Shown: piece after piece, positions 3,790 to 60,014 of the stretch
Layout of the letters: each line of letters opens with the position of its first letter
Position numbering within the stretch: the first letter of the stretch is position 1
Assembly (NCBI GenBank): GCA_036172245.1
Contig: JAYWIR010000011.1
Span: 1,364,001-1,428,000 of the forward strand
DNA: 64,000 nt
From: Raillietiella orientalis
Taxonomy: Eukaryota
Direction of reading: 5' to 3'
Position numbers and translations under genes: made by a program
Notes under the pieces: model-generated
The model's input: only the letters and a program-made list of their open reading frames with translations
What the model was told of the DNA's origin: nothing
The model's database searches: none

Positions 3790-4060
3790 GATGAAGACGA
3801 CGATCGGTTCGGTCAACTTCCGTAAAATAGCTTTTCTACTGAAGGCAGTGGTTGAGAGTGCCTCGAAAGAAGTGCATTTCGACGAGAAAGGTCGAGGTGG
3901 ACAGCTTGTGATCAAGTGGTCCGATCTGATCGACCTCGTAGCCACAAATGTGTACGCGCCCAGTGGCAGCATCAAACGCTCCGAATACAAATCGTTTTTC
4001 GAAGGGCTGAGGCACAATTGGCTGGCCGAAGCAGGCGTGTGGAGAGCGCACTTGAATGTG
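3790..4060 (+). mobile_element. Tx1/L1-like retrotransposon, APE endonuclease fragment
   Basis: IAFLLKA..HFDEKGR..VIKWSDLIDLVATNVYAPS..FFEGLRHNWLAEAGVWRAHL aligns with the endonuclease copies at 43050-43300 and 52700. Confidence 0.8.
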
Positions 4061-15800: not shown

Positions 15801-16037
15801 GGGTGTACTTCTACTGTTCGGGAATGGGGCTGAACTGATGCAATGAACTGAACGCTCGTGTTGGAGTGGTAACATGAGGATGAATGGCAACATCGTCCTT
15901 ACGGGCTATGCAATCCCGAATACCCAAGGAGACGAATCCTCTTCCCCCCCCCCCGTGTAGGAGCGATGAGACCTCTTCTTTTGCGAAAGAAGACCTTTCT
16001 GGAGGAGCAACCCATGTCTACTTCATATTAAACAAAT

Positions 16038-17847
16038 GTTTTCACCCGGGTGAGGCGGGGCTTTTATTTTTTAAAAGAAACATTTTAACAATTTGTAATT
16101 GCAGTCGACCTTTTGAATTGTATTTGTGTTCCTATCGGAACACATTTTTCGTATTGTTTTGCGCTTGTTTACCGACTTGAGTGCCGGTAAGGCCTACTCC
16201 ACTCGCGAAGGGGAAGGGAAAAAGGAAAAAAAAAATACAAAAAAAAACGAAAAAAAAAAAAGAACGCTTGGGAAACATTGTTTATGGGGAGGGGGAGGGA
16301 AGGGAAGGGATCACTGTTCGCCCAGGGGAGGCCTCTGCATCTGGTTCCGGATGCTAACAAGTGCTGGCAGAATTTTTCTCAGTCGGCGCCAACGGGAAGC
16401 CTTCTCCATGGAGATGACCGCCCAGTGGATGGCATTCCGACTACTGCGGCCTCTTATCGACGCGTTCCACTTGTCCAATATTCCCCGTGTGCAGCAGAGA
16501 ACTGCAACACACGCGGCACCTGGCAGGGAGTTCCGCATCAGGAGGAGACGAAAAATGTTTTTAGGGTCGCCCACCGCTACGTTTATGGCCGACGAGAGTC
16601 GATCCCACGTGCGGCGGAGGGCAACACATTCGATTAGTAAGTGGCGGAAGGTCTCCCTTTCCCCGCACTCTGTACAATGGGCATTCAATCTCCCCAATGT
16701 CCAGTGAGACAGAACGTGCTCTGCTTAAAAGTCCCCAAGGGAGCACAAGCAGCGCCGCCTCCTGCCAATCCAAAGGGAGGGTGCCACTGTCCCAATACGC
16801 CGGGGTCCACTTCACCTCCTCCGGAGGCATGCCGAGCAGCTCGCCCCAGCGCACAATTCCATTTGGCGGGACACTCGGGGTTGTAGCGTCCGCTAGTTCC
16901 CGGGACGTCCACGCCTTCATTAGTTTTTTCCTGTCCCCGATGAGGCAGGACACTTCATACGAAGTCTCCTCTTGGCTGTCCCTGGCTTCCATAAGGGAGG
17001 GCAGCACGGGGGCAAGGGGGATGAATGAGGCCCACAAAAGCTTTTGTGGGTGGGATACGATCTCCCGCAGGGGCTGGCCAGCGTTCCTGCCTCGACGAAG
17101 GCAGGAGAAGTCCACCTCGCTGGAGCCGTTGATTTTTGCCCACGTGGAAACGGAATCCTGGAGCCAGGTAGTCCAGTTTGCGTGGCTGCAGGAGATCCAC
17201 GGGCTGCTCCTCACCAGGGCCACCAATTCACGTAGCTGTGAACCACAATGGTACAGTCTATTGTCGTTGGCTACGAGGACTGAAATCAGTCTATCGCAGC
17301 CGGTTGTCCTGTGGGCGAGGAATCGTATGGGCGCACACCATGGTGCTGTCCAATATTTTGCCGCAAAGGCAAGTTTTCTTAGTTGGAGCTGACGCTCCAT
17401 GCGCTCCAACGTCAGGATACCAAGTCCACCGTCCCTGCGTGGAGCGCACATGTCTTTAAGTCGGACGCGGGGCCTCCGGTTACCCCAAAGGGCTTTCCTG
17501 ATGAGGCCCCTTGTTCGTGTCCTAATTTGGGGAGGGACGGGGCACACAAAAAGTAGAGGGCGAAGGAGGGGGGCCGCAAAGGCGTTCCACACCGCTGCCC
17601 GTTCCCGCAAGTAAAACTTGCCGTCCCGGAACGGGCGATCGCTAACTCCACCTTTTGAAGACGGTCGGACCAGGCTTCTGCAGCGCACAAGTCCCCCAAC
17701 GGAACGCCAAGGTACTTGATCTACCCGCCCGTGGGGATCCCCAAGCGGATCCATGCCGACCGTCCTGCCCGCGACGAGTCAGAGAAGGTGATCGACGACT
17801 TCGTCCTGTTCACCTCGAGACCTGTCCCGCGGCGCAGCAACTCGAAG
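16038..17847 (-). mobile_element. Tx1/L1-like 3' third, subfamily C
   Basis: LLRRGTGLEVNRTKS..KYLGV..RERAAVWNAFAAP..LPLDWQEAALLVLPWGL..CTECGERETFRHLLIEC; terminus at 16038-16068. Confidence 0.9.
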
Positions 17848-18225
17848 ATTAAACAAATGCAGGCAAGCAGTCCAGAAATTTTCCTAATATATGACAGAAA
17901 ACATGATTGCAGTGTCCGTGTCCCATATGTTGATGTCTTCATTGGAATACATAACTTTGATGAAGTCTAAATAAGGAGCATAAAACTCACGTTTATTCTG
18001 ACATGCCATTCCCCAAGTAGTGTGCCCTTCATAGATAATGCCTTTGAAGAATGGCTCGTTGTGCACTATGGTTTTAGACAAGCAGAGGTGGAGTTGTCCT
18101 CCTCATGATGCCAGTTTCACTCTTTCGACAAGGTTTGCTTTGCTATGAGGAGTGGTCCACATTCTTAGCGTGAACATATTGCTGGGTTCCTGCACGTGAT
18201 TTTTATGATGGCGCAGCAAGTCCTA
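17848..18225 (-). other. Possible endogenous negative-strand RNA virus nucleoprotein fragment
   Basis: Near-open frame ..LVERVKLAS*GGQLHLCLSKTIVHNEPFFKGIIYEGHTTWGMACQNKREFYAPYLDFIKVMYSNED fused directly to the Tx1 RT. Resemblance to mononegavirus/chuvirus N C-terminal lobe is a loose pattern only. Confidence 0.3.
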
Positions 18226-31599: not shown

Positions 31600-33600
31600 T
31601 TCTGGTCCTGCTTTGTGCACGTCTTGCCTCCCGAAATGTGAAAAAGCAAGCTGGGGACCACTTGCGAAAGACCCTTTGAGCGACAAGGAGGCTCCATGTC
31701 CGCTTGAAGAACTTGATGCACCGCAGAAGACAGAATTCTACGACTTCTCACGATGGAGTGTTTGGAGCGTCAGCTCCAGTGGAGAACCTAAGCATTCGTA
31801 ACGAGGGTTTCGGAGCGGCCATACTAGTGAGTAGCTGCACTCCTGCTGGTCAGGCAAGACACAGGATGGGAGGGAATTTCTTCCCGTCTTGCACGCCCCC
31901 TCAGCGTCGTGGCTTAATGCAGACTTCAGCTGCGGACTGGTGGCGGCCAGGATCAGGGAAAATAGCCGCATCTCTTGTCGCCTCGCGAACGGTAGTCTGG
32001 CTGCAGGAATCCATTGGCACGTGAGAGGATCATAACAACGCGCGTACGGAGTCACGGCAGAGACTGCTGTACTCATTCTACAACTGCTGATCGCTGCAGG
32101 ACATCGTTGTATTTCGCGAAAAGTGTGCGTAGACCGGACATTGTCCCTTTTGGCGACGCAGCCTCCCCTGAGAGCCATCTCGGGAGCAATCTACCGGCAG
32201 GGTGGGAGTTGTCCTGCAAGGTGAATTCTAGGAGAAGGATCTGCTTGGTTGATTCATGGGCCACCTTACAGACTCTGGGAATGCTAATGCCTGTCGGCGA
32301 GCCACTGGGCCGGAGCGAGCTACTGGAAATTGCATCTGAGGATCTGAAGTAGACCCCTGGGCTACGGAATACTGAGCCCGTTGTTCCCAAAGTGAAGGAA
32401 GCCAGCGATTCTTCAGTTGCATTGAGGACTCTTGCGCAACGCCCGTTAGCATCACTGGACACAGGCGTTTGCGAACTTAAACCTCAGCATTGACGGAGAA
32501 AGAGTCCCTCTCGACCCTGCTTGCGGATTTCATTGCCCTCCGTGCAGAATGAGAACGCTTTGCAGAAACCCTGCGGACCCTTCTACGGTAACTTCGGAAA
32601 AATTTTCAAGCGTCCCTTTGGGCTTGATGTGGAGACGTCAGCCGCGTCCTTAGCAGTACCTATGAGGGTTGCGGCTGCCGGGAACGCCACCAAAAGAGGT
32701 GGAAACGGCAAGAAAACTGTGGCGCTTCACTTCATGAGAAGAGCATCGAATCGGCCTCGACCAAGCCATTTAGAAAAAGAACAGAAGAATCCAGCCGAGG
32801 ATTACATCACCATCTTTGCATCTTTGTCCACCGCAATAAACGCCCATGGCAACCATGTAGGAAATCTTTCTCCATAGCAAAGACGCGCTCCGCTACTACG
32901 GTCCAGTCGTTGATTCTCTCGAGAGGGAGCATTCTGTTGTTGCGCATCTCACGAGTGTCTTTTTCGGCATATGACATGCTTTGCTAGAGAGGCTCGTCGC
33001 TTGCTCCCCGGAAGATTCCACTCTTATTGGTCGTGGTTTTACGCGTGATTTGTTTGGCTAGTGGAAGACGATGTTTCACTTTGCTGTCCCCGGCTGGACC
33101 AGCTCCTCCATTTTCTATCATGTTTCCACCTCCGTCGCTGCGTGCAACCACATCCACATCACAGACCTCGGTTTCCAAGCGTTCCTTTCAGGTGAGCCTC
33201 CAGAAACCTTGAGCTTTGCTCTGAATAGCTCATCGCCTGCCCTCTAGGTGCCCCCGTGATAACGCATGCCTGCATGCCCTCCATGTTCGGGTTGCATCAG
33301 GTAGAGACAACCTACGGGTTCATCTCCGAAGGATGACCGACCTCTATCATTCAACCTCAACAGCACTGTGGCGAGTCCACAGAGAACCCTTTTATGGTCC
33401 ACAGAAGGGCTGATACAGGTCTTCAGCGCATGGATGGTTCCGTATTTCATCATCCGCGCATCCATGACACCTTCTGCCATGCGAAGCGGGATGCCTGGAG
33501 ATGTGTCGCGACCCTGCTCGAATGAGCGGTGAGATGCAGCAGCCTCTCTGGTAGAGAGAAACAGAACGAAAGTACCCAGTGGGAAGTCAAGAAGCAATGG
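31600..33600 (-). mobile_element. Decayed Tx1/L1-like ORF1 fragments (two pieces, ~31600-32560 and ~33250-33600)
   Basis: MKYGTIHALKTCISP..RVLCGLATVLLRL..CLYLMQPEHGGHAG parallels FATVHALW..FSCGLATARVTM..FAGQTPACG at 7300-7500. Confidence 0.6.
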
Positions 33601-41149: not shown

Positions 41150-42594
41150 AGATTTCAACCTCCACTTCAGGATGCTGGCTTGGGCATCCTGATATTGGAA
41201 AGAATCGGACTGCAAGTGCAGTTCCGAATGCTGGCGCCGCGTGCCAAGCTGTGGACTCCCCCGTTGTGCGCTCCTGCACGCATTCTTCTACGGAGATGCG
41301 CCTGCAGCGAAGGATTGCTCTCGTTGGTGCCGGGCACTCAGTACAGGATGCGGGGTTTCGGAATCCCATTGAGGCAATTGACCTCACTTCTGGAAACCCA
41401 AACGTGGATCTCCTGCCTCCCAATGAACTTCAACGCTTGACGGCAGGAAGCTGTTGAGTCCTGGGTTGCGTTCCAGGAAATGCGCCCTGAAGATCTTTGC
41501 CCCCTGCGACATCTCCTACCTCTACCACTGGGAGAGTAATGCAGGACGCAGTAAAGCTTTCAGCACTGTTCGCCACGCCTCTTGCTGCAGCACTGTCTGC
41601 ACTCAAGGCAAGCGATGACAGGAGTCTAGCAACGAGGTGGGAGTTTTCCTGCCCCGTCGTGGGAAAAACCAGACTCCTTGGCGGCTGGAAGACGCGCGAG
41701 CTGGCGGATGCTGCCACTCCGCTTGCCGTGGCGACGGGATTCCTTCAGTGGGGCTAACTTTTGAGTGTTATCTCCGAAGAACTTGTCGTCCCTCCCTATG
41801 GTTCTCACAGTTCCTTGATCTCCCTCGCCTGGAAACAAGCCATACTGCTCTTCATCCACAGAGAATTCCAGTATAATGAGCGACCGCATCAAGTTTCCGG
41901 AGGAGTTGCATCTCCGAACTGTGGCAGGTACGAGTCGCCGGAGTCGATCCCGCACATGCTTTTGGACTGCAGTACCCTCCAAGAACTGTGGCGGAGCCTG
42001 GCAACGGCACTTATGCACCAGAAGGATACCGTAAGAGACGTGCTGCGGTGGTTCTTTGCTCCCAGAGGTCTCTCCACGGGCCACGTTATTGCAACCATGG
42101 GTTGCATCCTCGCCATCGCTTCGGCCCGACAGGTGCTGGAAATCACCGGGCATCAAAGGAAGTTCATCAGGATGGCAGCCAATTACATCGGGGCGGCTGC
42201 CAAGTGGTCTCACCTGGGAGAAAAAGCAATGCGACATCCACTGCCGGTTGATGGCCGGTTTGGGACGGCGAACCCGGTAATCCTTGTCCTCTTCCTCCTT
42301 TTATTTATTTATTTTTTTTTTAGTCCCCCGTTCCCTTACGCTCTGTGACTTTCTTGGTGAATTTCGTTTATATCCCGGTGATTGCGGAGCGTTACCAAAG
42401 ATCTTTACCCCTCCCCTCCATCTTGTTTTTGTTTTTTTGCTGTTGTCCCCATGTTCCTCCCCCATTCCGGACTATCCGTTATCCCGCCTTGCATGCCGGT
42501 GGATTCTCCCCTATGTTTCTTTGTTGTATTGGTTGTGGTCTTTGTTCCTCACCTCTTTATTTAATAAACGACCCGGCGTGACCGGGTGATAAAT
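41150..42594 (+). mobile_element. Tx1/L1-like 3' half, subfamily B
   Basis: GLGILILERI..KLWTPPLCAPARILL..LAWKQAILLFIH..VSGGVASPNCGRYESPESIPHMLLDC..KWSHLG; terminus at 42563-42594. Confidence 0.9.
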
Positions 42595-43594
42595 TTCAAC
42601 CTCCGCCATGGGTCGGTGAACGAGGGAGAGTGAGGATCGACCACTTCCGACCATTGCCGGCTGGAGTCCGAGGTCCGAGATTTGACATACGACTCCTCGT
42701 CGGAAAGCGTTCCGCTAGAAAACATCAACTCAACCATCCATTAAATGCGCCCATAGAAGACGCATTCCGTCAGATGGGCACAAAGCCTCCTGACCAGGAG
42801 GTGGGAACCACAGCGCCACCATCACTACAGTGATGCGTGGGCTCGTCTCTTGCCGGCGACTGCGCATTGTCTGTTGGAACGTCAACGTGCTGCGGGACTA
42901 CGACAAGAGGAGGGACATAGCCGCCACTCTACGAGCCTATCGAACAGGTGCTTCTGCAAGAGTCACACAAGCTGAACGCAGAAGAAGTCGAGGAAATCGA
43001 AAGGATCGAAGGTGGTCAGCTGCTGTGGCGCGTACAGGTTCGGCCCACTCCCGCGGAGTGGTCCTGCTGAAACCAGCCGTCGACAACTCCCTGCGCGACA
43101 TGCATTTCGGGGTGGAAGGTCGAGTGGAACGGCTTGCGGTGAAGTGGTCCGACTCGATTCACCTCGTGGTCACGAAAGCGTACGCGCGCAGCGCCACCAA
43201 CAGGCGCGGAAAACGCACGGCGTTCTATGAAGGACTGAGGAGCGATTGCCTGGTCGAAGCAGGCGTGCGGAGGGCGCACTTGATAGCCGGGGACTCCAAC
43301 GCCCGCCCGCTGTCAGGTGCGCCGAACGGACCAGCAGATCTGGTCGACAAGATGTGCACACGCGCAACTTGTGGACCGGAGTAGCCGTGGTGGAGGAAAG
43401 CATTAACCACGTGTTCCTGGACAACCACTTGTAGTCACAAGTGGGAAATCGAAGAGCCATGAGGTCAACGCTGTCGGACCACTCTCGGCTTGTGCTCGAG
43501 ATACATCCACGCGACAGAGGCCCGCCCTCCCAAGCATGGCGCCTGCCAGAGGGCTGGTTGAACCTCGCAGGAGCAGCGGGGACATCTCGGCGAA
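42595..43594 (+). mobile_element. Tx1/L1-like ORF1 end and endonuclease
   Basis: TGATG stop/start at 42831; CWNVNVLRD, SRGVVLL, AHLIAGDSN, INHVFLD, TLSDHSRL. Confidence 0.88.
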
Positions 43595-43830
43595 CACTGG
43601 ATCTTCTGCTAAGAAGAAAGATCTTGTGTTGACACCAGTTGTAGCACACTCGGAACAACAGTCCAACTGATTGATTCTCAATGAATTGAAACTGTAGTAA
43701 TTGAGGCTATTTAAAACATTTCACATTCGTTGAGTGACACAGGATCACTAGACTAATTTCAGTAAATTAGATTTAATCGTATGTCAGATTCAATCTTTAT
43801 CCCAATACACCTCAAACAACTATCACTAGC

Positions 43831-44575
43831 ATGGCGGAAAGATCAGAGCTGAAAATGCTGGCCTTATCCGAACCGGCCAGGGAAGCTAACCTTCAGCTTC
43901 ACCCACAATTTAGTGTGAGTTACTCAGGGAAGTCCTGTCACACGAATAGCATTATGATACACTTTCTCTCAGAACCAGGACGCATAGGTTTGCTCACGAC
44001 CAAGCTATTATCGGAATATTGGCCTGCGTCTGGTCAGGAAATGGCATTTATGTGCTTAATTGCAGTGATCGGCTTCTTAATGTTCTTTTTAGAGCCAAAT
44101 CAGATAATGAGTAACAGTGGGCTTAATGCTGGGCTTAGAATTGCGGGGATTTGAGTAAATTACAAGCCATTGAACAATGAGGAAATGAATCAGCTGAAAA
44201 ATGATGAGGACGTTATACGATGCTTTTCTGTGTTCCCTGGCTCAGTTGATGTGTATAAATACTTGGACGATTATGAAAATCCCCTTTTTTCAGGGGCTAT
44301 TATCGTATTAACCATTGCCAAACAGGTTAACCCTGAGGGGTGTTCTGGGTGGTACGACAATAGGGTTAGGACTTTCTGCGGGGTCAGTGGTCTAGTCGAT
44401 CATCTCAACAAATGGTCTGACTTGTGCTCTCCCCCACAAAAATCAATGACTACAGGTGATATGTCGGTGAATATCGAAACACAGACGTCAATCTTTAGAA
44501 CATGCAATGGTTGCTCAAAAGGCAACCATCTATTTAATGCTACACCAAGAGAAGTGATTCACTTCTCACACGGAG
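43831..44575 (+). pseudogene. Endogenous viral element: negative-strand RNA virus nucleoprotein-like (Lispi/Xinmo/Chu-like), 3'-truncated
   Basis: ORFs 43831-44154 and 44170-44634 are one frame split by a single TGA. Motif GAIIVLTIAKQVNPEGCSGWYDNRVRTFCGVSG..W...SPP..IFRTC..REVIHF recalls arthropod mononega/chuvirus N. Intronless and lower GC than its flanks. Confidence 0.7.
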
Positions 44576-44880
44576 CACTGGATCTTCTGTTGGGGAATAC
44601 CATGATTGAAGCAATCGTTCAAGCCACTTCCTGATGCTGTCATGAATGAAGATCAGGGGGCAATGGACAGGAATGTCCACGTATCTGCTAGGGATGAACG
44701 CGGAAGCGTTCCACTGCACCTCCCTGCAGAACGAACGGCTGACCGCAGGTCAGAGTTGCCGTTTCTCAGCAGCCGTGCCGGCGTTGGTGCCTTCGGTGAA
44801 AAAGGGATGGCAGCTGTGCGACGGAGAATGGATCCCTCACTACGCTGAAAGCATGGCGCCAGCGTGAACTGTCGGTTCCA

Positions 44881-46130
44881 ATTTGTTGACATTTTCAAAT
44901 TTCTTGATTTTACTTTTATTTTGGGGGTTTTGAATAGTATTAATTTCACTTCTGATAGGGACATTGCCTTTCTCGATTGATTTCCGACGCCTTCTTCATC
45001 GTTTTTAACTAGTTTAATAGTTTCCCACAACACTTTGCGTTTATTTCCAAAAACATAAGGTAAATAAGTCATTAGTACACTCAATAATTCTTCGTAACAC
45101 CCTCCAAAGAAAAGTTTTTGTGCACGATTGTACTATAGTTTATGGATTTTATTTCTTCTACGATATGTTATAAATAATTGCTCGAACCGTTTCACTTGAC
45201 AAAATTTCTCTAAACTGTATAACACAATGTGGTTTTTGCATTTTCCTTTTAAGGTTTCGTGATGTTTTTCAACTCGACGGTCGCCACCACTTCATATGAA
45301 TATTTCGGCATCTTTGCTAATTTCGGATGCATCCATTCATTTGAAAATTTTGCTTATAAAATTAGTAATGCTTGCCTTCTCATTTTTCTTCATTGCTGTT
45401 GGTTCATTTCGCGGCAAGCTCTTCTCCTTTTTAATTACCTTTTCCTCTTTTAGTTGATTTTTCTTTATCACTACCAATATGATAAGATGAAAAGAGAATA
45501 TTGTTTTCAACTCTTTTTTTATTTTCTTACACAGCTCCAAAAGTTCCATCAATTCGAATGCATAAAACGTCCTCTGTAATTTTAATTTTTTTTTACTTTT
45601 ATTTTTTATATAATCAACATTATCCAAAAAATTAGCTTTTTCCAATGTATCTGATAATGTTTCCCCCCCTTAATATGACAATGCTCTGGAGCATCTGAAA
45701 TATCTTTCTATCTTTTTGCATCCCCCCAAATCAAGTGAATCTTAAATGTGGGTCAATTTTTTCACATCTCCTTTGAACCCAGTTTTTCATCTCACGGATC
45801 ACGGTTTCCATTTTTGTTTGCTTCCTTGCCACAGAGAACGTATCTGTCTTGAACATTCTGTCTTGAATGCACTTGGCAATACTGATACAACTTCACCTCC
45901 TTGTAATACTTTTCCTTGTTCATACCATTTAAACATCATATCTCCTTCTATTGAAATTCTTCCACTTATTCTCTTGTTGCTTCAGTTTTATTTTCTCTAG
46001 AATTTCTCTATGATTTTTTTTTATCCTGTAAATCCACTGTTTGCCATCCTTTCTTATTGAAAAAATCACATAATTACAAAATCATACTTTGCCAGTTATA
46101 TTGTAAGCGGAGCTTTATTTCAAAATACGA
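44881..46130 (-). pseudogene. Endogenous viral element: orthomyxovirus-like polymerase PA subunit, C-terminal half
   Basis: Frameshifted AT-rich frame with motifs in PA order: KWKP.SVREMKNWVQR, LRFT*FGGMQKDRKIFQMLQSI (cf. influenza [20 protein letters not shown]), LEKFC, LFFGGCYEELLSVLMTYLPYVF (cf. [21 protein letters not shown]). Confidence 0.55.
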
Positions 46131-46189
46131 GGTTCCACAAACATCAATAACCAAAATCGAATTACTAGTCTTGAACACTCAAATCAAAA

Positions 46190-47163: not shown

Positions 47164-47857
47164 AGTGTACGATTTCACTCGTTTTTTTTTTAATGAGTTT
47201 ACGTACAAAGTCACGTTTTTGGGTGATTATGGATCGGTTGATTCGTCGCGAGTCGGATGGTAAAAAAAAAAAAGACTTTGGAAATTTGGGAAAATGCAGC
47301 TGAGCTTTAGGGGCGGATCGCAACGGGAAAACGGGAAAAAGTTTGATGTTGTTTGCGAAAGATTCGGAGAACGCTTAGGCGAACCTTTTCGCCCGGCCCT
47401 TGCGAGTTCTCCCGGGCACCTTGGAAGGGGCGGAGAAGCTTCTCTTTTCGTTTTTCGAAGATGGCCGCGAGCCCGGGTTGCGCGCATGCTTGGAACGCAG
47501 TGCCGGAAGGATGGGAAGGGGTGTTGAGGGGAGCAATCGGTTCGATTGCAACCGGAAGAAGCGATTTGAGGGAAGAAAGCCGCTTGCGAAAGACATGGCG
47601 GCGGTGCTCGGAGGCAGCGGAATGCTCCGTGGGCAAACGGCGAACGGGAACTTTGCTGGGCTGAAAGGGTGAGGCTTAAATGGGTGGATTGAGGAAGCGT
47701 AAGTGCCCGCGTCGGAGGCTGTGGGGCTGCGGTCTCCGCGCGTGGTGCCAAGCGCCGCGGGTTCGAATACGCTCGGCGGGAGTGGACGCTGCGCCGTCCC
47801 CCCCCCGAGTTTCTCTCCCCGCAGGATGGGCGCTGTTGGTTCTCGTTCGGGTGCGGC
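47164..47857 (+). repeat. Left arm of ~700 bp inverted repeat (partner 59317-60014)
   Basis: Reverse complement of 59317-60014; the differences seen are length changes in homopolymer tracts. The ORF track gives identical peptides on opposite strands. Confidence 0.97.
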
Positions 47858-47960
47858 TCCGGTAGCGATCCAGACGGTGATGCACCCCACCGATGAGTGT
47901 TGGTCCCTTCGGGGAAGAACAGCAGCGCACGTGTGTGCTCAATGCATGTTCCTCGTGGAT
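47705..47960 (+). repeat. tRNA-derived SINE-like or Pol III repeat, copy 1
   Basis: Starts GCCCGCGTCGG, B-box GGTTCGAATAC at 47760-47770, TTAAAT at -29 to -24. Confidence 0.55.
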
Positions 47961-48459
47961 TCAGCCAGTTGTATGAACACACGACAACACTTTTTGTGGG
48001 GGGAGGGGGAGGGTGCCGTGGGAAGGGGATGGCTTCTCACGGGCACAGCCACCACCACCCACCTACCAAGAATGTTGAAAGCTTCTGTTGAAGAGTAGAA
48101 ATCCTTCCGTCCGGATGGTGGGTGCTCATTCTCTCACCTTCGCGCAGGGGGATGCGGGGCGTGGCCGCAAAACCGACCGGCAATCCGCGTACAGCATGGA
48201 ATGTTGTGGCTCCCGGAGCATGCGGAGAGCGTTTCCTGGACCGTCAGGGTGCCCGAGGCTCTCTCACCAAAGTGGGCCCGTACCGGTGGCACCAGCTTCA
48301 TCGCCATCCAACCGATAATCAGTTCTTCATTCCCTGCCTACATCATCTTGCCATACGTTTTTCCGTAATAGATGATGAATGGGTTTCAGCATCACTCATA
48401 AATTCGGATTTGTCAACAAAACGTGGTGCGCCTCTTCGCTCTGCTGCGGAGGTGAGCCC

Positions 48460-50220: not shown

Positions 50221-52111
50221 AAGTGGCCCTGACAGTGAAGTCCAGGGAGCAGGGACGGAAGCCCTAGAGCACAGGGCGCCGGAGGGGACACCCGTCTCTT
50301 CCGCAGAAGAATCGGCGTCCCCCAAGGGGACGCTGTGGAGCGCTGTGGCTGCGGCACCTTCGCCAGCGGTCGCGGCAGTGGCTACGGCTTACCTCGCCTC
50401 GGGCTACAACCCGTGCCTGAGGTACAAGGTAGGTCAATTGTGGAATCCAGCAGTAGTGCGCTCCTTCTCGGAGGAGCTTTATAAGCTGCAAGTCAAACAG
50501 GAGGAGCTCGTCGCCCTCTCCATTCTGAGCGGTGGGCAGACAGTCGAGGTGGCTTGCAAGGAGGCGAGCCTTGCCTAAAGACTGATGCACACACCGATTA
50601 CAATCGGAGGGCGCAGGATCTTCCCTGTGACGGAGGACTGCTCAAGATCGTGCACCTTACCGGAATTACAGTGAGGATGATCAAAGAAGCAGTCGTCCGC
50701 TCACTGCAACAGAACGGGACGGTCCACGCACTGTGGTCAGAGCCCAGCGTCTTCCCCGACTTTCCAGGGGATCAGATCTAGCCGGAGCGCGAGTGGCTGT
50801 ATGGTAAGAAGAGCTTCCTCACAGACTGGAGGTCAGCCGTGAACCCGTCGACCTCTGGTACACGGGGAAACCAAAGGTCTGTACACACTGTGGCAAGTCG
50901 TGTCACCTGAAGGGAAGGTGCCTCGATATTATATGCTATAGATGCGGGAAGAGCAAACTCGGAAATTCTTCTGCTCCCTCAGACCCGGCAGACCTTCCAA
51001 GAGCGCGCCGGAACGGAAGAAAAATAAAAAGCAAAATAAAAATAAAAATAAAAAAAGGAATAAAGAAAAGAGATCGCGCGCGATTTCGTCAGAAGGAGGA
51101 AAACAGGCGAGGAATGCCAGCAAGGAGGTTCCTCCCCCCGATGCAACCAAGGTAAGTCCCCGACGCCGAGGCAGCACAGGAGGAAGAAGGCTGAACGGTG
51201 GTGACCCGCCGAAAAGAAAAAAAAAAAAAAACATACAAACAAAAGAAACATCCTGCGACTTTCGCGGCTTAAAGCTCCGAAGACCGCGAAAGACGCTATC
51301 GATTGCGCTGTTAGGCACGTTGCGGAGGTCGTTGTCGTCGAGATCAATGACCTCGGAAATAGCGCGATTGACAAGGTGGCCACTACTTGTAGCCTGGACG
51401 CAGCTGTACCGAACGGCGCAACAGCGAATGCTGCTATGGCGAAGCCTCTAACCGTCGGAGGCGCGACAACGCGCGAGGCCACAGAGGCCGGTCGGAGGGG
51501 AATCTGGAGACCCACACGGGGACCTACCCAGGGGTCGTCGGAATCCGAAACCAATACCTGACCTCTTGCCCCGAGCCGGAGGCTTGCCACTCGACATTGC
51601 GGAGGGCCAAAGCGGCTAGAACGCTCCAGGCCCAAGTCGAGCAGGAGGAAGCCTCCGCACTAGGAAGGATGCAGGAAGGTTCGCGGGAATCCTCCGTGGA
51701 GGCCATCCTGCGAACCCCTACACAAAATGAAAGGAGGGAGGAAGGGGATGTGGTTTGGGCTCCCCCTCCCCTCCCGGACACCGCGCCGGTCGAGAGCCGG
51801 GTGGGTGCTACGTCGCCAGATTCCCTGCAGTAATGCATGAAATGACGTCCTCCCGTCGCTTGCGCGTGGCCGTTTGGAACGTGAACGGCCTGCGCGACGT
51901 CGTGAAAAGACGCGACAAAGCCCACTCCCTACGAAACTCCGACTTTGCGCTCCTCGAAAAGATCCACGTGATCGCGGACGAGGATGCCGCTGACTTCGAA
52001 CGGATCGCGGGAGGAAAGCTGCATTGGTAGTGCGGAACCCGTAAATCGAAAGGGGTGGCCTTCCTCTTGAAGCCAGCCATCATGCGCGCGGTGCACAGCA
52101 TACGGTTCGAC

Positions 52112-52666
52112 GTTTTCACCCGGTCAAGCCGAGGCGTTTATTGTAAACTTCGATATTTGCAGTGCAAGGCTCCGCTGCGGCCAATTAAACAAGGGACCCG
52201 TCGGTGCGCAGACCGACTTGACACTCCACGGCAGCGGAGGGGGGTGAGGAAAAAACAAAAAGAAAAATAAAAGATAACTGAAAAAAAAACTATAGTTCTT
52301 TGGAGGGTCGGGAAGGGATCACTGTCCGCTTTGTGGAGGTTCCATCCTTTGCAGGATGCCGACGAGGTCCTTCTGCAGATTTCCCAGGTGGGGCCATCGG
52401 GTTGCTATTCGCAGAAAGCGAGCTGCATACTCCATGACATTCCTTTCGTTTACATCTGCTTCGTCGGATCCACTCCAAGCCGCCACAATACCGCGGATGC
52501 AGCTGAGCACTGCTACGAAAGCCGCTGGCTGCAGGGCGTCCCTCACGAGGAAAAGCCGAAAAACGTCTCTGGGAGGGCTACCTTCCACGATCCCTAGGGT
52601 CGTACCGAAACGTTCCCACAGAATCCGGAGGGCAGGGCAGTCAACTATAAGGTGGGGGAGGGACTT
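52112..52666 (-). mobile_element. 5'-truncated 3' fragment inserted antisense in the endonuclease
   Basis: SLPHLIVDC..CIRGIVAAW..RWPHLG; terminus at 52112-52142; very similar to 8400-8670. Confidence 0.92.
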
Positions 52667-53189
52667 CAGGGTTTCGAGGAACCGGGAACGTTCCCGGTTC
52701 CTCGAAACCCTGGAGCACGACTGGCTGGCTGATACAAACGTACGCAAGGCACATCTGATCGGTGAGGATTTCAACATCCGCCTGCTCTCAGGTGTGCCTT
52801 GAGAGCAAAAAGACGCGGCCAACGAGTTGCGCGCTGCTATGCGCATGCGCAACTTGTTGGGGGACCTACCGGAAATGGTCCAAAGAGTCGACCACGTCTT
52901 CCTTGACGCCGACCTGTGCCCACGGGTCGGCAGACGAGGGAAACTTCCGTCGACGCTATCGGACCATTTCCGGCTCATTTTCGAGGTTATGCCTCGCGAC
53001 AAAGGACCACCATCCAGGGTGTGGCGTCTGCCCGGGGACTGGACGCGGATCTCAGGTGCGGCGAAACATCTCCACCAATTCCTGGGAGGCTTCATCCTCC
53101 GGAATCTCGACGACTGGGACCTCATGAAGGTCTCGGACCGCGAGTTCTGCGAGGAGTTCCATGTGCACCGCCTGCCCCGGGGATTTGGT

Positions 53190-58644: not shown

Positions 58645-58960
58645 CTATTCGGCAAAAGTTTGACGTGAGATCGGAAGGAGAACAAAGTGTTTGAAATGCA
58701 ACGTGGACAAATCAGCAATTTCGAAAATCGTGGGGGGGGTAAAGGGAGCTTCATCTTCTTCTCCTGAAGAGTTTGCACTCTCCATCATTCGGATCCTTCG
58801 TCGCCGATTTTTCACAGTAATTTCGCTGCCATTGGAACGAATACCGGAATCGTCATCACTTGCACTATCTTCAGACGCAGTATCAGTTAAATTGTCATCA
58901 GCTGGGTATAAAGGAAGTTCTTCACTTTCACGCAATTCAGAATTTTCATTCCGAAGTTTC
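58645..58960 (-). mobile_element. Possible piggyBac (PGBD) transposase N-terminal remnant
   Basis: Acidic/Ser-rich DTASEDSASDDDSG..KNRRRRIRMMESANSSGEEDE pattern is typical of piggyBac N-termini. No DDD core, TIR or TTAA seen. Confidence 0.4.
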
Positions 58961-59199
58961 GTCCATCTTTGCTTTGCAACTGACCGATGGCAGAAGGAGA
59001 GCAGCAGTTCTTATGGAAAAGTTCAATAGGGAATACCTCGACTTTTATAACAAAGCCGAGGCCCCGCTCGGATGCTTCCCACACGCCCACTGCGCCGTCC
59101 CCCCCGCGTTTCTCCCAGCAGGAGGGCGCTGTTTGGGCGACCGGGAAGCAGCGTTTCAAAAAATTTTGGTGTTGGGCGAAACCCAACGGGTCCAATCGA

Positions 59200-59472
59200 C
59201 GGACATGCACGCAGGCTGCGCGGCGTAACCCACGCAACCTGCGTGTGCTCAATGCATGCTTCCTCGTTGGAACCGCCACCACCACTCGGGGGGCTGGGCG
59301 ACTGCCCCCGGCGCCCGCCGCACCCGAACGAGAACCAACAGCGCCCATCCTGCGGGGAGAGAAACTCGGGGGGGGGGGAACGGCGCAGCGTCCACTCCCG
59401 CCGAGCGTATTCGAACCCGCGGCGCTTGGCACCACGCGCGGAGACCGCAGCCCCACAGCCTCCGACGCGGGC
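59200..59472 (-). repeat. tRNA-derived SINE-like repeat, copy 4
   Basis: Head identical to copy 1 within the inverted repeat; body diverges beyond 59317. Confidence 0.55.
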
Positions 59473-60014
59473 ACTTACGCTTCCTCAATCCACCCATTTA
59501 AGCCTCACCCTTTCAGCCCAGCAAAGTTCCCGTTCGCCGTTTGCCCACGGAGCATTCCGCTGCCTCCGAGCACCGCCGCCATGTCTTTCGCAAGCGGCTT
59601 TCTTCCCTCAAATCGCTTCTTCCGGTTGCAATCGAACCGATTGCTCCCCTCAACACCCCTTCCCATCCTTCCGGCACTGCGTTCCAAGCATGCGCGCAAC
59701 CCGGGCTCGCGGCCATCTTCGAAAAACGAAAAGAGAAGCTTCTCCGCCCCTTCCAAGGTGCCCGGGAGAACTCGCAAGGGCCGGGCGAAAAGGTTCGCCT
59801 AAGCGTTCTCCGAATCTTTCGCAAACAACATCAAACTTTTTCCCGTTTTCCCGTTGCGATCCGCCCCTAAAGCTCAGCTGCATTTTCCCAAATTTCCAAA
59901 GTCTTTTTTTTTTTTTACCATCCGACTCGCGACGAATCAACCGATCCATAATCACCCAAAAACGTGACTTTGTACGTAAACTCATTAAAAAAAAAACGAG
60001 TGAAATCGTACACT
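59317..60014 (-). repeat. Right arm of ~700 bp inverted repeat (partner 47164-47857)
   Basis: Ends ...CGAGTGAAATCGTACACT, the reverse complement of AGTGTACGATTTCACTCG at 47164. Confidence 0.97.

Follow-up and report, generated by a model that had tools for sequence, protein, structure and literature searches.

A lispi-like nucleoprotein fragment between 14-bp direct repeats in LINE-rich DNA of Raillietiella orientalis

The insert, its repeats and its viral frame

The window, by which we mean the whole stretch of DNA analysed (64,000 nt), contains a 967-bp insert in which 222 non-coding bases are followed by a frame of 249 codons with a single TGA. The insert is enclosed by two exact copies of the 14-mer CACTGGATCTTCTG and preceded by decayed LINE sequence (Table 1). 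These two copies are the only ones in the window, and no third was found when one mismatch was allowed; the chance expectation is 0.07 matches, and two or more copies occurred in none of 100 dinucleotide shuffles. The edges of the repeat are sharp, the bases immediately outside the two copies being different. The insert is AT-richer (GC 0.39–0.43) than its left (0.60–0.61) and right (~0.51) flanks, the GC content falling from 0.61 to 0.39 at the left copy, and neither end of the insert carries an A-run. The enclosing 14-mer and the missing poly(A), both described in an earlier reading made from the sequence only (hereafter the sequence-only reading), were thus found as described.

Table 1. Coordinates of the insert, its repeats and the surrounding features in the window.
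Feature	Position	Strand	Remarks
Neighbouring LINE 3′ fragment (41164–42592) with stem-loop and ATAA, flanked by ATTTCAACCTCC	41152–42604	+	
Decayed LINE ORF2 AP-endonuclease domain and post-endonuclease motif (SDH...WRLP), in at least two frames; insertion target	42794–43594	+	
Left 14-bp repeat copy, CACTGGATCTTCTG, taken as target-site duplication	43595–43608	+	Exact match
Non-coding AT-rich stretch 5′ of the N ATG	43609–43830	+	GC 0.35, without long open frame
ATTTAAAAC motif	43709–43717	+	Present
N-terminal ~60% of a lispi-like mononegavirus nucleoprotein gene, codons 1–249, mRNA sense	43831–44575	+	phmmer and profile
Single in-frame TGA, the sole break in the frame	44152–44154	+	Alignment collinear on both sides, no frameshift
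Second hairpin, 8-bp stem, 7-nt loop	44507–44529	+	Perfect 8-bp stem
Perfect hairpin with 8-bp stem and 3-nt loop, 8 nt short of the insert 3′ end	44549–44567	+	Post-hoc observation
Right 14-bp repeat copy	44576–44589	+	Viral homology ends in codon 44575–44577, overlapping its first two bases
Right flank	44590–44870	+	GC ~0.51; no significant similarity found

The window is rich in repeats, and as a baseline its 64 kb were found to hold eight maximal exact direct repeats of at least 14 bp at a spacing of 100–3000 bp; exact 14-mers so spaced are no great rarity here. Of the seven pairs other than that around the insert, at least four lie, by our reading of the coordinates against the mapped LINE copies, within neighbouring copies of the same transposon (an attribution not computed), and one is of low complexity. 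The 14-mer pair around the insert is the sole one of the eight with non-homologous sequence on both sides. Its right copy lies within 2 bases of the end of viral homology, and the two copies lie in one and the same codon phase with respect to both the LINE and the viral frame.

The frame opens with an ATG at 43831 and runs over 43831–44631 to a terminal TGA at 44632–44634. A phmmer search against 1.84 billion representative proteins returned 30 matches at E≤1e-3, six of them at E≤1e-10, the best being P0003 (E=6.2e-15); the full-length matches measure 427–449 aa, and their residues ~54–273 align to query residues 46–249. One of these matches, P0008 (E=8.1e-11), bears the name ‘VP5 [Cat Tien Hospitalitermes Lispi-like virus]’, after a termite virus, and its relatives carry the names ‘Nucleoprotein, Jimsystermes virus’ and ‘Nucleocapsid protein, Macrotermes bellicosus lispivirus 1’. 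Another of the 30, P0009, proved to be a repeat artefact (10 short stretches, Fibritin_C) and was dropped before alignment. A profile built free of the query scored 136.5 bits over residues 24–249, which correspond to profile positions 20–251 of 382; the homology ends at residue 249, whose codon straddles the start of the right repeat, and the remainder of N (profile 252–382) was found nowhere in the window. Seven of the eight invariant or near-invariant columns of the family are retained, as is the core motif around LLTIGK.VNP..Y.GW..NR.R.F.G.LG, while the FLSA.F.LRR block is degraded and bears a 2-residue deletion. By these sequence comparisons the frame is viral and homologous to lispi-like mononegavirus nucleoproteins, which agrees with the sequence-only reading that an N-like frame with one in-frame stop would match viral N proteins and that its similarity would not run through the right repeat.

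Identity to the named viruses is only 24–30%, and we therefore call the donor ‘lispi-like’ rather than a member of Lispiviridae proper; the ICTV criterion for that family is L/RdRP phylogeny (PMC12642352), and the placement given here follows N similarity alone at this level of identity. The AlphaFold model of the homolog P0008 (pLDDT 82) matched the solved nucleoproteins of Nipah, Sendai, measles, HMPV, Marburg and Ebola viruses (75 chains at E≤1e-3, best 3.3e-7) and, in BFVD, 42 lispi/arli-virus N models at E≤1e-3; as modelled, the lispi-like N family has the fold of mononegavirus N. For the element itself, the single-sequence model reached a pLDDT of 30 and was not used, so that the N fold of the element is assigned by homology. 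Where a complete coding sequence would comprise ~430 codons and both lobes, the locus holds a fragment with one TGA; the element is now a truncated pseudogene, with one stop and with the C-terminal lobe of N missing.

Several other searches gave no relative of the frame. Pfam, which holds no model for the lispi-like N family, returned only BTBD8_C for the viral frame (E=0.23, below cut-off); PDB sequences gave three matches at E≤10 with the frame (best E=0.56) and three at E≤10 with the family profile, the best of which (E=0.076) is an unrelated designed protein. A word-index search of 5.8 billion proteins yielded 1344 candidates and none at E≤0.01, the ESM Atlas gave no usable match to residues 109–267 and only unrelated matches to the homolog P0005 (scores <0.9), and IMG/VR scans with P0008, P0005 and P0007 gave no relative. 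No Mononegavirales polymerase domain was present among the 150 longest ORFs of the window.

The 222 nt upstream of the ATG match nothing else in the window and are presumed to be viral leader and/or 5′ UTR. The sequence-only reading had described a leader of ~220 nt, AT-rich and with ATTTAAAAC; stretch and motif are both there.

Flanking DNA and resident LINEs

A LINE profile built from 14 AP-endonuclease and RT proteins matched the left flank at 42794–43381 (profile 3–143, E=9.6e-6) and at 43435–43563 (profile 218–252, E=0.013, SDH motif included), and the same flank is homologous to LINE copies elsewhere in the window, at 51681–53085(+), 11052–10428(−) and 3803–4056(+). Pfam gave no match on the decayed left-flank copy, and on one homologous copy it gave Exo_endo_phos at E=4.4e-4, below its cut-off. 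The sequence-only reading had assigned the left flank to Tx1 endonuclease sequence; a LINE endonuclease is borne out by the profile and by the in-window paralogs, while membership of the Tx1 clade is putative. Local alignment of this flank to two of the paralogs stops short of the repeat, at 43588/43594; in a multiple alignment the first ~7 bases of the left 14-mer loosely continue the paralog sequence.

The right flank may be the poorly conserved endonuclease–RT linker of the same LINE copy. Its local alignment scores against the LINE paralogs were 10–12, with a shuffle mean of 10.3–10.8, and comparisons with the LINE profile and with all six-frame ORFs of the window gave no significant similarity. 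A MAFFT alignment that ran the LINE on into the right flank was set aside as unsupported by shuffled local alignment, LINE profile and six-frame BLAST. When the LINE profile was run on an in-silico empty site, its alignment was not extended across the junction. As LINE homology is demonstrable on the left only, a LINE target running on past the repeat is putative. The coincidence of the end of LINE homology with the repeat was counted against the reading we prefer below.

Ten LINE-type 3′ ends were recognised in the window, each with a conserved stem-loop followed by diverging flanks and without poly(A), among 11 matches to the LINE 3′ motif (the one at 32835 lacks the stem-loop). The resident LINE 3′ end consists of a conserved 6-bp stem-loop and an A-rich tail of 4–5 bases; the description of these LINEs as tail-less in the sequence-only reading thus holds as regards poly(A), but not as regards this short tail. 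Related LINE copies in the window carry AP-endonuclease and RVT_1 domains and a weak zf-RVT, and the best matches of their reverse transcriptase among 5.8 billion proteins are L1-superfamily-like at 27–32% identity. Rfam recognised no family in the window, known LINE 3′ elements included.

Two resident LINEs are bounded by exact 12-bp target-site duplications. One of them is the fragment next to the viral insert, whose ATTTCAACCTCC duplication (41152–41163 and 42593–42604) is exact and occurred as two matches in none of 100 shuffles; from it the length of duplication that the resident retrotransposition machinery produces can be read. Left of 41152 the sequence resembled no other LINE copy at the protein level. 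The primed-strand nick sites of the two resident insertions are AAAT/C and AATG/C (n=2), and with this number they bear no obvious likeness to either possible nick site at the viral insert.

Origin of the insert

We consider it likely that the insert is an endogenous viral element of lispi-like N origin produced by one LINE-type endonuclease/reverse-transcriptase event. Under this reading, 43609–44575 would be a DNA copy of the 5′ part of a mononegavirus N RNA, comprising the 222 non-coding nt upstream and codons 1–249 of the about 430 of N, that was integrated once, at nicks staggered by 14 bp, in a decayed copy of the LINE endonuclease domain, and filling in of the stagger would have left the exact 14-bp target-site duplication. 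The most likely agent would be a reverse transcriptase priming on the nicked target, as in LINE-type target-primed reverse transcription, and the likeliest candidate would be the resident LINE family, with its lack of poly(A), its stem-loop followed by 4–5 bases and its 12-bp duplications. We infer the target-site duplication from anatomy alone, and we infer also how it was made, by which enzyme and on which viral RNA species. The single EN/RT-mediated integration of viral RNA put forward in the sequence-only reading is supported by the viral match and by the end of homology at the right repeat; that the resident LINE made the insertion is suggested by its own 12-bp duplications. The exact 14 bp found here is a length typical of LINE duplications.

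Neither end of the insert carries the 3′ motif of the LINE beside the duplication. What the 3′ end has is a hairpin followed by 8 nt, which resembles a LINE 3′ end in shape. For a template of mRNA sense the copy does not preserve the template 3′ end, since it stops at codon 249; an intact 3′ end with 5′ truncation would be obtained only if the template was the negative-sense genome. Compared with a classical LINE-made copy of an mRNA, the anatomy is reversed, with the 5′ end retained, the 3′ end cut within the ORF and no poly(A).

A doubtful but more specific version of the preferred origin is that the resident LINE, which would recognise its own RNA by the 3′ stem-loop, copied positive-sense N RNA by way of the hairpin at 44549–44567 as a mimic. 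The cDNA would have been started 8 nt past the viral hairpin, as it would be 4–5 nt past that of the LINE, and would then have reached the 5′ end of the viral RNA, so that the missing poly(A), the cut inside the ORF and the complete upstream leader would all be accounted for. A perfect hairpin of at least 8 bp ending 0–11 nt upstream is found for only 0.48% of window positions, a figure obtained post hoc.

Alternatively, the event and the duplication may have been the same and the template the negative-sense genome, primed at the genome 3′ end and copied until an early stop in N, which we hold to be unlikely. In that case the insert would begin, on its left, exactly at the genome terminus, with the first nick on the + strand between 44589 and 44590. 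An early stop of the cDNA is the usual 5′ truncation of LINE copies, and a genomic template would account jointly for the absent poly(A), the retained upstream end and the cut inside the N ORF. It fits, too, with several lispi-like N copies on termite-gut metagenome contigs that retain codon 1 and whose C-terminal part is cut off at positions 242/243 and 334 of the profile; those cut at 353 lack a start because the contig begins there, and the search for flanking repeats around the C-terminally cut copies gave only a 9-mer in L010/L011, likely by chance. Genomic mononegavirus RNA is, however, encapsidated and poorly accessible, and two perfect 8-bp hairpins would have been read through before the reverse transcriptase stopped, 8 nt beyond the second, whereas stalling would be expected before a hairpin. 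The gene order bears on the proposal in both directions: it is 3′-N-P-M-G-X-L-5′ in the ICTV profile (PMC12642352), and in the excerpted account of a RACE-complete lispivirus 142 nt precede the first ORF (PMC11360795), which is of the same order as the 222 nt seen here; but in the termite clade N has about 0.9–1.2 kb upstream and appears third or fifth among the annotated products, so that N is not always the first gene.

Three further origins were weighed. That the insert is a secondary retrocopy, made from the host transcript of an older N-derived element or of a domesticated N-like gene whose 5′ UTR supplied the 222 nt, is quite improbable: viral homology of that stretch is not demonstrated, which would suit such a source, and a 151-nt contig identical to part of the insert, likewise counted in its favour, shows only presence in the sample concerned, but no part of the insert recurs in the window, the 249 codons have a single stop and no frameshift, and no source gene is indicated. 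We regard as extremely improbable a recombinant LINE, in which the reverse transcriptase jumped from LINE RNA to viral RNA and back to LINE RNA 14 nt behind where it had left, copying those 14 nt twice, before the chimera was inserted. The stop of LINE homology right at the repeat and the common codon phase of the two 14-mers agree with it, although the latter has a chance of 1 in 3; it requires a LINE right flank, which the similarity searches there did not find, and template jumps in LINE chimeras use 0–5 nt of microhomology, normally without re-copying of 14 nt.

Just as improbable is cDNA made by another reverse transcriptase, such as that of an LTR retrotransposon, and end-joined at a break, the 14-mers then being due to chance or to fill-in of a staggered break. 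Non-retroviral viral elements of insects are commonly linked to LTR retrotransposons, and the eight exact repeats of the baseline count leave some room for chance; yet no LTR-element domain lies near the insert, the repeat adjoins both the end of viral homology (within 2 nt) and the shift in composition, and the shuffles never produced the second copy.

One public sequencing run matched part of the stretch (share 0.07, 17 records; no RNA run was listed), and one of its contigs, of 151 nt, is identical to 43854–44004. None of the 17 records of that run crosses either 14-mer, and none is a joint that skips the insert, so that they bear neither on an empty site nor on expression; the paralogs in the window have diverged too far to stand in for an empty site. 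The present role of the element, if it has any, would likeliest be that of a small-RNA template in a transposon-rich region.

Comparison with known viral fossils

The EBLNs derive from polyadenylated mRNA, whose poly(A) tail they retain, and their truncation, where present, is 5′. The element described here differs in that it lacks poly(A), retains upstream non-coding sequence and ends inside the ORF at codon 249; its donor is lispi-like and not a bornavirus, which had served the sequence-only reading as an analogy only, and the resident LINEs end in a stem-loop rather than a poly(A) tail. In stringent-type LINEs the reverse transcriptase recognises a 3′ stem-loop, which SINEs borrow (eel UnaL2/UnaSINE1). 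The likeness to UnaL2 is one of shape, the resident LINEs ending in a 6-bp stem-loop and 4–5 nt and the viral insert in an 8-bp stem-loop and 8 nt; the viral and LINE hairpins share no clear sequence.

With the mammalian EBLNs and other LINE-made non-retroviral viral fossils (PMC3205384, PMC2987831), the element has in common an origin from mononegavirus N, a single germline insertion, a target-site duplication in the LINE range and a decayed frame. With the lispi-like nucleoproteins of the Cat Tien Hospitalitermes (VP5), Jimsystermes and Macrotermes bellicosus lispivirus 1 viruses it shares homology over residues 24–249, from which it departs in its low identity, its restriction to a part of the profile and its stop. 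Lispi-like N-derived elements have been reported in arthropod genomes, for example of aphids and horseshoe crabs, in the excerpted accounts of PMC11978097 and PMC12282059; as there described, these are of the same kind, namely mononegavirus N fossils in invertebrate-type transposon-rich DNA, and what sets the present case apart from those accounts is a LINE reverse transcriptase at most 32% identical to anything in 5.8 billion proteins.

The element is a clean but not unusual fossil of an insect-type negative-strand RNA virus. It bears witness to a past infection of the germline by a divergent lispi-like mononegavirus whose N reaches no more than 30% identity with known sequences, among host transposons that have no close relatives in public protein data; by itself it dates nothing. 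With both integration junctions intact it ranks among the cleaner non-retroviral viral fossils, and the resident LINE, having no poly(A), makes it a concrete test of how such LINEs acquire foreign RNA. Should either the hairpin mimicry or the priming at the genome 3′ end be true, it would help to explain the recurrence of N-terminal N fragments among such fossils, and the mimicry in particular would give a rule, at the level of sequence, that says which parts of an RNA virus are fossilised where LINEs lack a poly(A) tail.

Viral identity of the frame

The frame of the insert was compared with protein databases, with the stop codon entered as X in every search. HMMER against 1.84 billion cluster representatives returned 30 proteins at E≤1e-3 (six of them reach 1e-10, none 1e-30); Pfam, PDB sequences, a word-indexed search of 5.8 billion proteins and the ESM Atlas gave no match. 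One of the 30, P0009, was discarded as a fibritin-repeat artefact, and a Pfam scan of 15 matches found no family for the other 14. Residues ~54-273 of the full-length matches (427-449 residues) pair with query residues 46-249, revealing that the query covers the N-terminal ~60% of a ~430-residue protein. The best-scoring matches were P0003-P0007; names came from a word-index search with another match, P0008, itself 'VP5 [Cat Tien Hospitalitermes Lispi-like virus]' on a 12.3-kb contig, which also identified P0033 (Nucleoprotein, Jimsystermes virus) and P0037 (Nucleocapsid protein, Macrotermes bellicosus lispivirus 1).

An AlphaFold model of P0008, built from a 30-row alignment of the viral family (A2; pLDDT 82.2, pTM 0.74), matched 75 PDB chains at E≤1e-3 (best 3.3e-7, TM about 0.36), namely nucleoproteins of Nipah, Hendra, Sendai, measles, HMPV, PIV5, mumps, Marburg and Ebola viruses. 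The same model had 42 matches in BFVD at E≤1e-3, to N or ORF1 of Jimsystermes virus, several Hangzhou lispiviruses and arli-related viruses. The frame is 24-30% identical to lispi-like viruses and retains seven of the eight invariant or nearly invariant family columns; further along, the FLSA.F.LRR block is degraded, with a two-residue deletion. Taken together, the sequence matches and the structural matches of the P0008 model identify the frame as a fragment of a mononegavirus nucleoprotein (N) gene, with lispi-like viruses closest, in agreement with the likeness to viral N proposed in the sequence-only reading.

Boundaries and flanks of the insert

The repeat CACTGGATCTTCTG lies at 43595-43608 and 44576-44589 and, even allowing one mismatch, nowhere else in the 64-kb window; because the bases flanking the two copies differ, its length is exactly 14 bp. 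None of 100 dinucleotide-preserving shuffles held two copies (chance expectation, 0.07 matches). The window contains eight maximal exact direct repeats of at least 14 bp at 100-3000 bp spacing, this pair included; of the remaining seven, one is of low complexity and at least four appear to fall in adjacent copies of a single transposon, by a reading of their coordinates against the mapped LINE copies. The two CACTGGATCTTCTG copies keep unrelated sequences apart. The enclosed 967 bp have a GC content of 0.39-0.43, compared with 0.60-0.61 in the left flank and ~0.51 in the right, and begin with 222 non-coding bases (GC 0.35); an A-run was absent from both ends. The features claimed from sequence alone, an exact 14-bp repeat, an AT-rich putative leader of ~220 nt containing ATTTAAAAC, a frame with one in-frame stop and no poly(A), were thus borne out (see table).

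Features of the insert, its flanks and the resident retroposons (window positions)
Feature	Position	Strand	Remark
Frame from ATG	43831-44631	+	Open apart from one TGA
In-frame TGA	44152-44154		Single stop in frame
ATTTAAAAC	43709-43717		Within 222-base non-coding part
Second hairpin, 8-bp	44507-44529		In insert
Perfect hairpin, 8-bp stem, 3-nt loop	44549-44567		8 nt before insert 3' end
Decayed LINE ORF2 endonuclease domain	42794-43594		Left flank; split across at least two frames
LINE 3' fragment, 1.43 kb	41164-42592		Within 41152-42604, immediately upstream of endonuclease fragment holding insert
Exact 12-bp target-site duplication ATTTCAACCTCC	41152 and 42593		Around 41164-42592; two copies in 0/100 shuffles
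5'-truncated LINE copy	16027-17859	-	Stem-loop 3' end GGGTGAAAA
Exact 12-bp target-site duplication CATTTGTTTAAT	17848 and 16027	-	Two copies in 0/100 shuffles
Retroposon 3' ends with AATAAACG.CCCGGCGTGACCGGGTG	8188, 12078, 13202, 16044, 38902, 42588, 49725, 52118, 53195, others		Ten in total
Peptide ASPFQPSKVPVRRLPTEHSAASEHRRHVFRKRL...	47310-47675	-	Inverted duplication
Peptide ASPFQPSKVPVRRLPTEHSAASEHRRHVFRKRL...	59502-59867	+	Inverted duplication

A profile of A2 built without the query aligned query residues 24-249 with positions 20-251 of 382 (136.5 bits). Residue 249 is encoded at 44575-44577, a codon that overlaps the start of the right repeat by two bases, so the viral homology stops where that repeat starts, as originally claimed, and does not run through it. 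The frame stays open for 18 more codons across the repeat into the flank, a tail with no counterpart in the A2 alignment or profile. The missing C-terminal third of N was not found in any frame of the window, nor was a mononegavirus polymerase domain among its 150 longest ORFs.

The earlier assignment of the left flank to endonuclease was upheld by a profile of 14 AP-endonuclease and RT proteins, which matches 42794-43381 (positions 3-143, E 9.6e-6) and 43435-43563 (positions 218-252, SDH motif included, E 0.013); Pfam did not recognize this decayed copy. In translation, the flank shares 35-50% identity with the window's other LINE copies, relatives that bear RVT_1, a weak Exo_endo_phos match and a zinc-knuckle ORF1. 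The best database relatives of the RT in the window are L1-superfamily-like proteins, fish and plant names included, at only 27-32% identity, which points to thin sampling of the host lineage. Local alignments of the left flank to the two site-covering paralogs end at 43588 and 43594, just short of the left repeat. Beyond the insert, the right flank (44590-~44870) resembles neither these paralogs nor the LINE profile nor the rest of the window at a significant level, so that insertion within a continuous LINE copy is only a possibility; an apparent continuity across the insert in a MAFFT alignment failed its shuffle control and was dropped. This flank may be the weakly conserved endonuclease-RT linker of a less closely related LINE subfamily, or unrelated DNA. 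Directly after it, GC falls sharply to 0.29-0.38 (44870-46150), and the junction at ~44870 may mark the edge of a further insertion or deletion. A 236-nt contig of the public sequencing run X1 is identical to 44939-45174.

Resident LINEs and the proposed route of integration

The LINE-type 3'-end motif has 11 matches in the window, none with a poly(A) tail. Ten contain AATAAACG.CCCGGCGTGACCGGGTG, an AATAAA signal plus a 6-bp stem-loop; 4-5 bases come next, mostly A-rich, beyond which the sequences are unrelated. The stem-loop is missing from the eleventh match, at 32835. Exact 12-bp target-site duplications delimit two of these insertions (see table). The bodies upstream of the ten differ and no Rfam family matched these ends; the shared element looks like a 3' recognition module common to several LINE subfamilies, or to LINE/SINE partners. 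The 12-bp duplications and the tails without poly(A) indicate that resident LINEs cut with a stagger similar in size to that around the viral insert and do not need poly(A). The ATTTCAACCTCC-flanked LINE and the viral insert together imply that this part of the window took up two or more nested insertions in 3.5 kb.

We consider it likely that the viral piece entered once, at two nicks 14 bp apart, where target-primed reverse transcription, or a near-identical reaction of an endonuclease and a reverse transcriptase, would have copied viral RNA in a single event; this is the simplest reading. Less likely are an older N-derived element whose transcript was retrocopied, a LINE-virus-LINE recombinant formed by template jumps, and end-joining capture with the repeat present by chance. 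The anatomy is odd for an mRNA copy, with a complete upstream end, a stop at N codon 249 and no poly(A). For such an integration we favour, only slightly, positive-sense RNA on which copying would have started internally to N. A post-hoc observation is that a perfect 8-bp hairpin ends 8 nt short of the 3' end of the insert; such a hairpin ending 0-11 nt upstream is found at only 0.48% of window positions. The order of stem-loop, short tail and duplication, likewise noted post hoc, resembles that at a resident LINE 3' end. Copying of the negative-sense genome from its 3' end, with a 5'-truncated cDNA, agrees with the lispivirid gene order 3'-N-P-M-G-X-L-5' (PMC12642352) and with the 142 nt reported ahead of the first ORF of a lispivirus (PMC11360795). 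Against it, genomic RNA is encapsidated and N is apparently not the first ORF in the termite lispi-like clade.

Related fossils and the present state of the element

Lispi-like N copies occur in termite-gut metagenome contigs (L003, L005, L006, L007/L008, L010/L011, L012 and L013), and many are broken by frameshifts or stops, and hence are probably host-genome fossils. Codon 1 is kept while the C-terminal side ends at profile positions 242/243 in L007/8 and L010/11 and at 334 in L012, with the contig continuing in each; in L004/5, N ends at position 353 and the start is cut off by the contig end. Several copies thus share the truncation polarity of the window element; no convincing flanking duplication was found around the C-terminally cut ones. 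In L001 (1-1105) and L002 (1-1200), 1.1-1.2 kb with small ORFs only (84-125 codons in L001) precede intact N ORFs of 424-429 codons, directly after which both contigs end; this layout and the labels 'hypothetical protein 3' and 'VP5' suggest that some other gene precedes N in this clade.

The element lacks the C-terminal lobe of N, carries one stop codon and has no demonstrated promoter or transcript; it is most likely an inert fossil. The listing of public sequencing runs that contain part of it names no RNA sample, which speaks neither for nor against expression. Its surroundings are almost wholly nested LINE fragments. In arthropods, viral fossils in regions of this kind act as templates for piRNAs, and by analogy this position would be a candidate place for such a role. 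The element belongs among the mononegavirus N-gene fossils with LINE-type duplications, which are well known and include EBLN (PMC3205384, PMC2987831); lispi-like N fossils are reported from arthropods (PMC11978097, PMC12282059). It is set apart by its divergent donor, intact junctions, retained putative leader and absence of poly(A), and further by a host LINE whose 3' end carries a stem-loop.

Elsewhere in the window, 47230-48100 and 58890-59870 encode the same peptide strings over long stretches on opposite strands; they are the two arms of a GC-rich inverted duplication, separated by about 11 kb.
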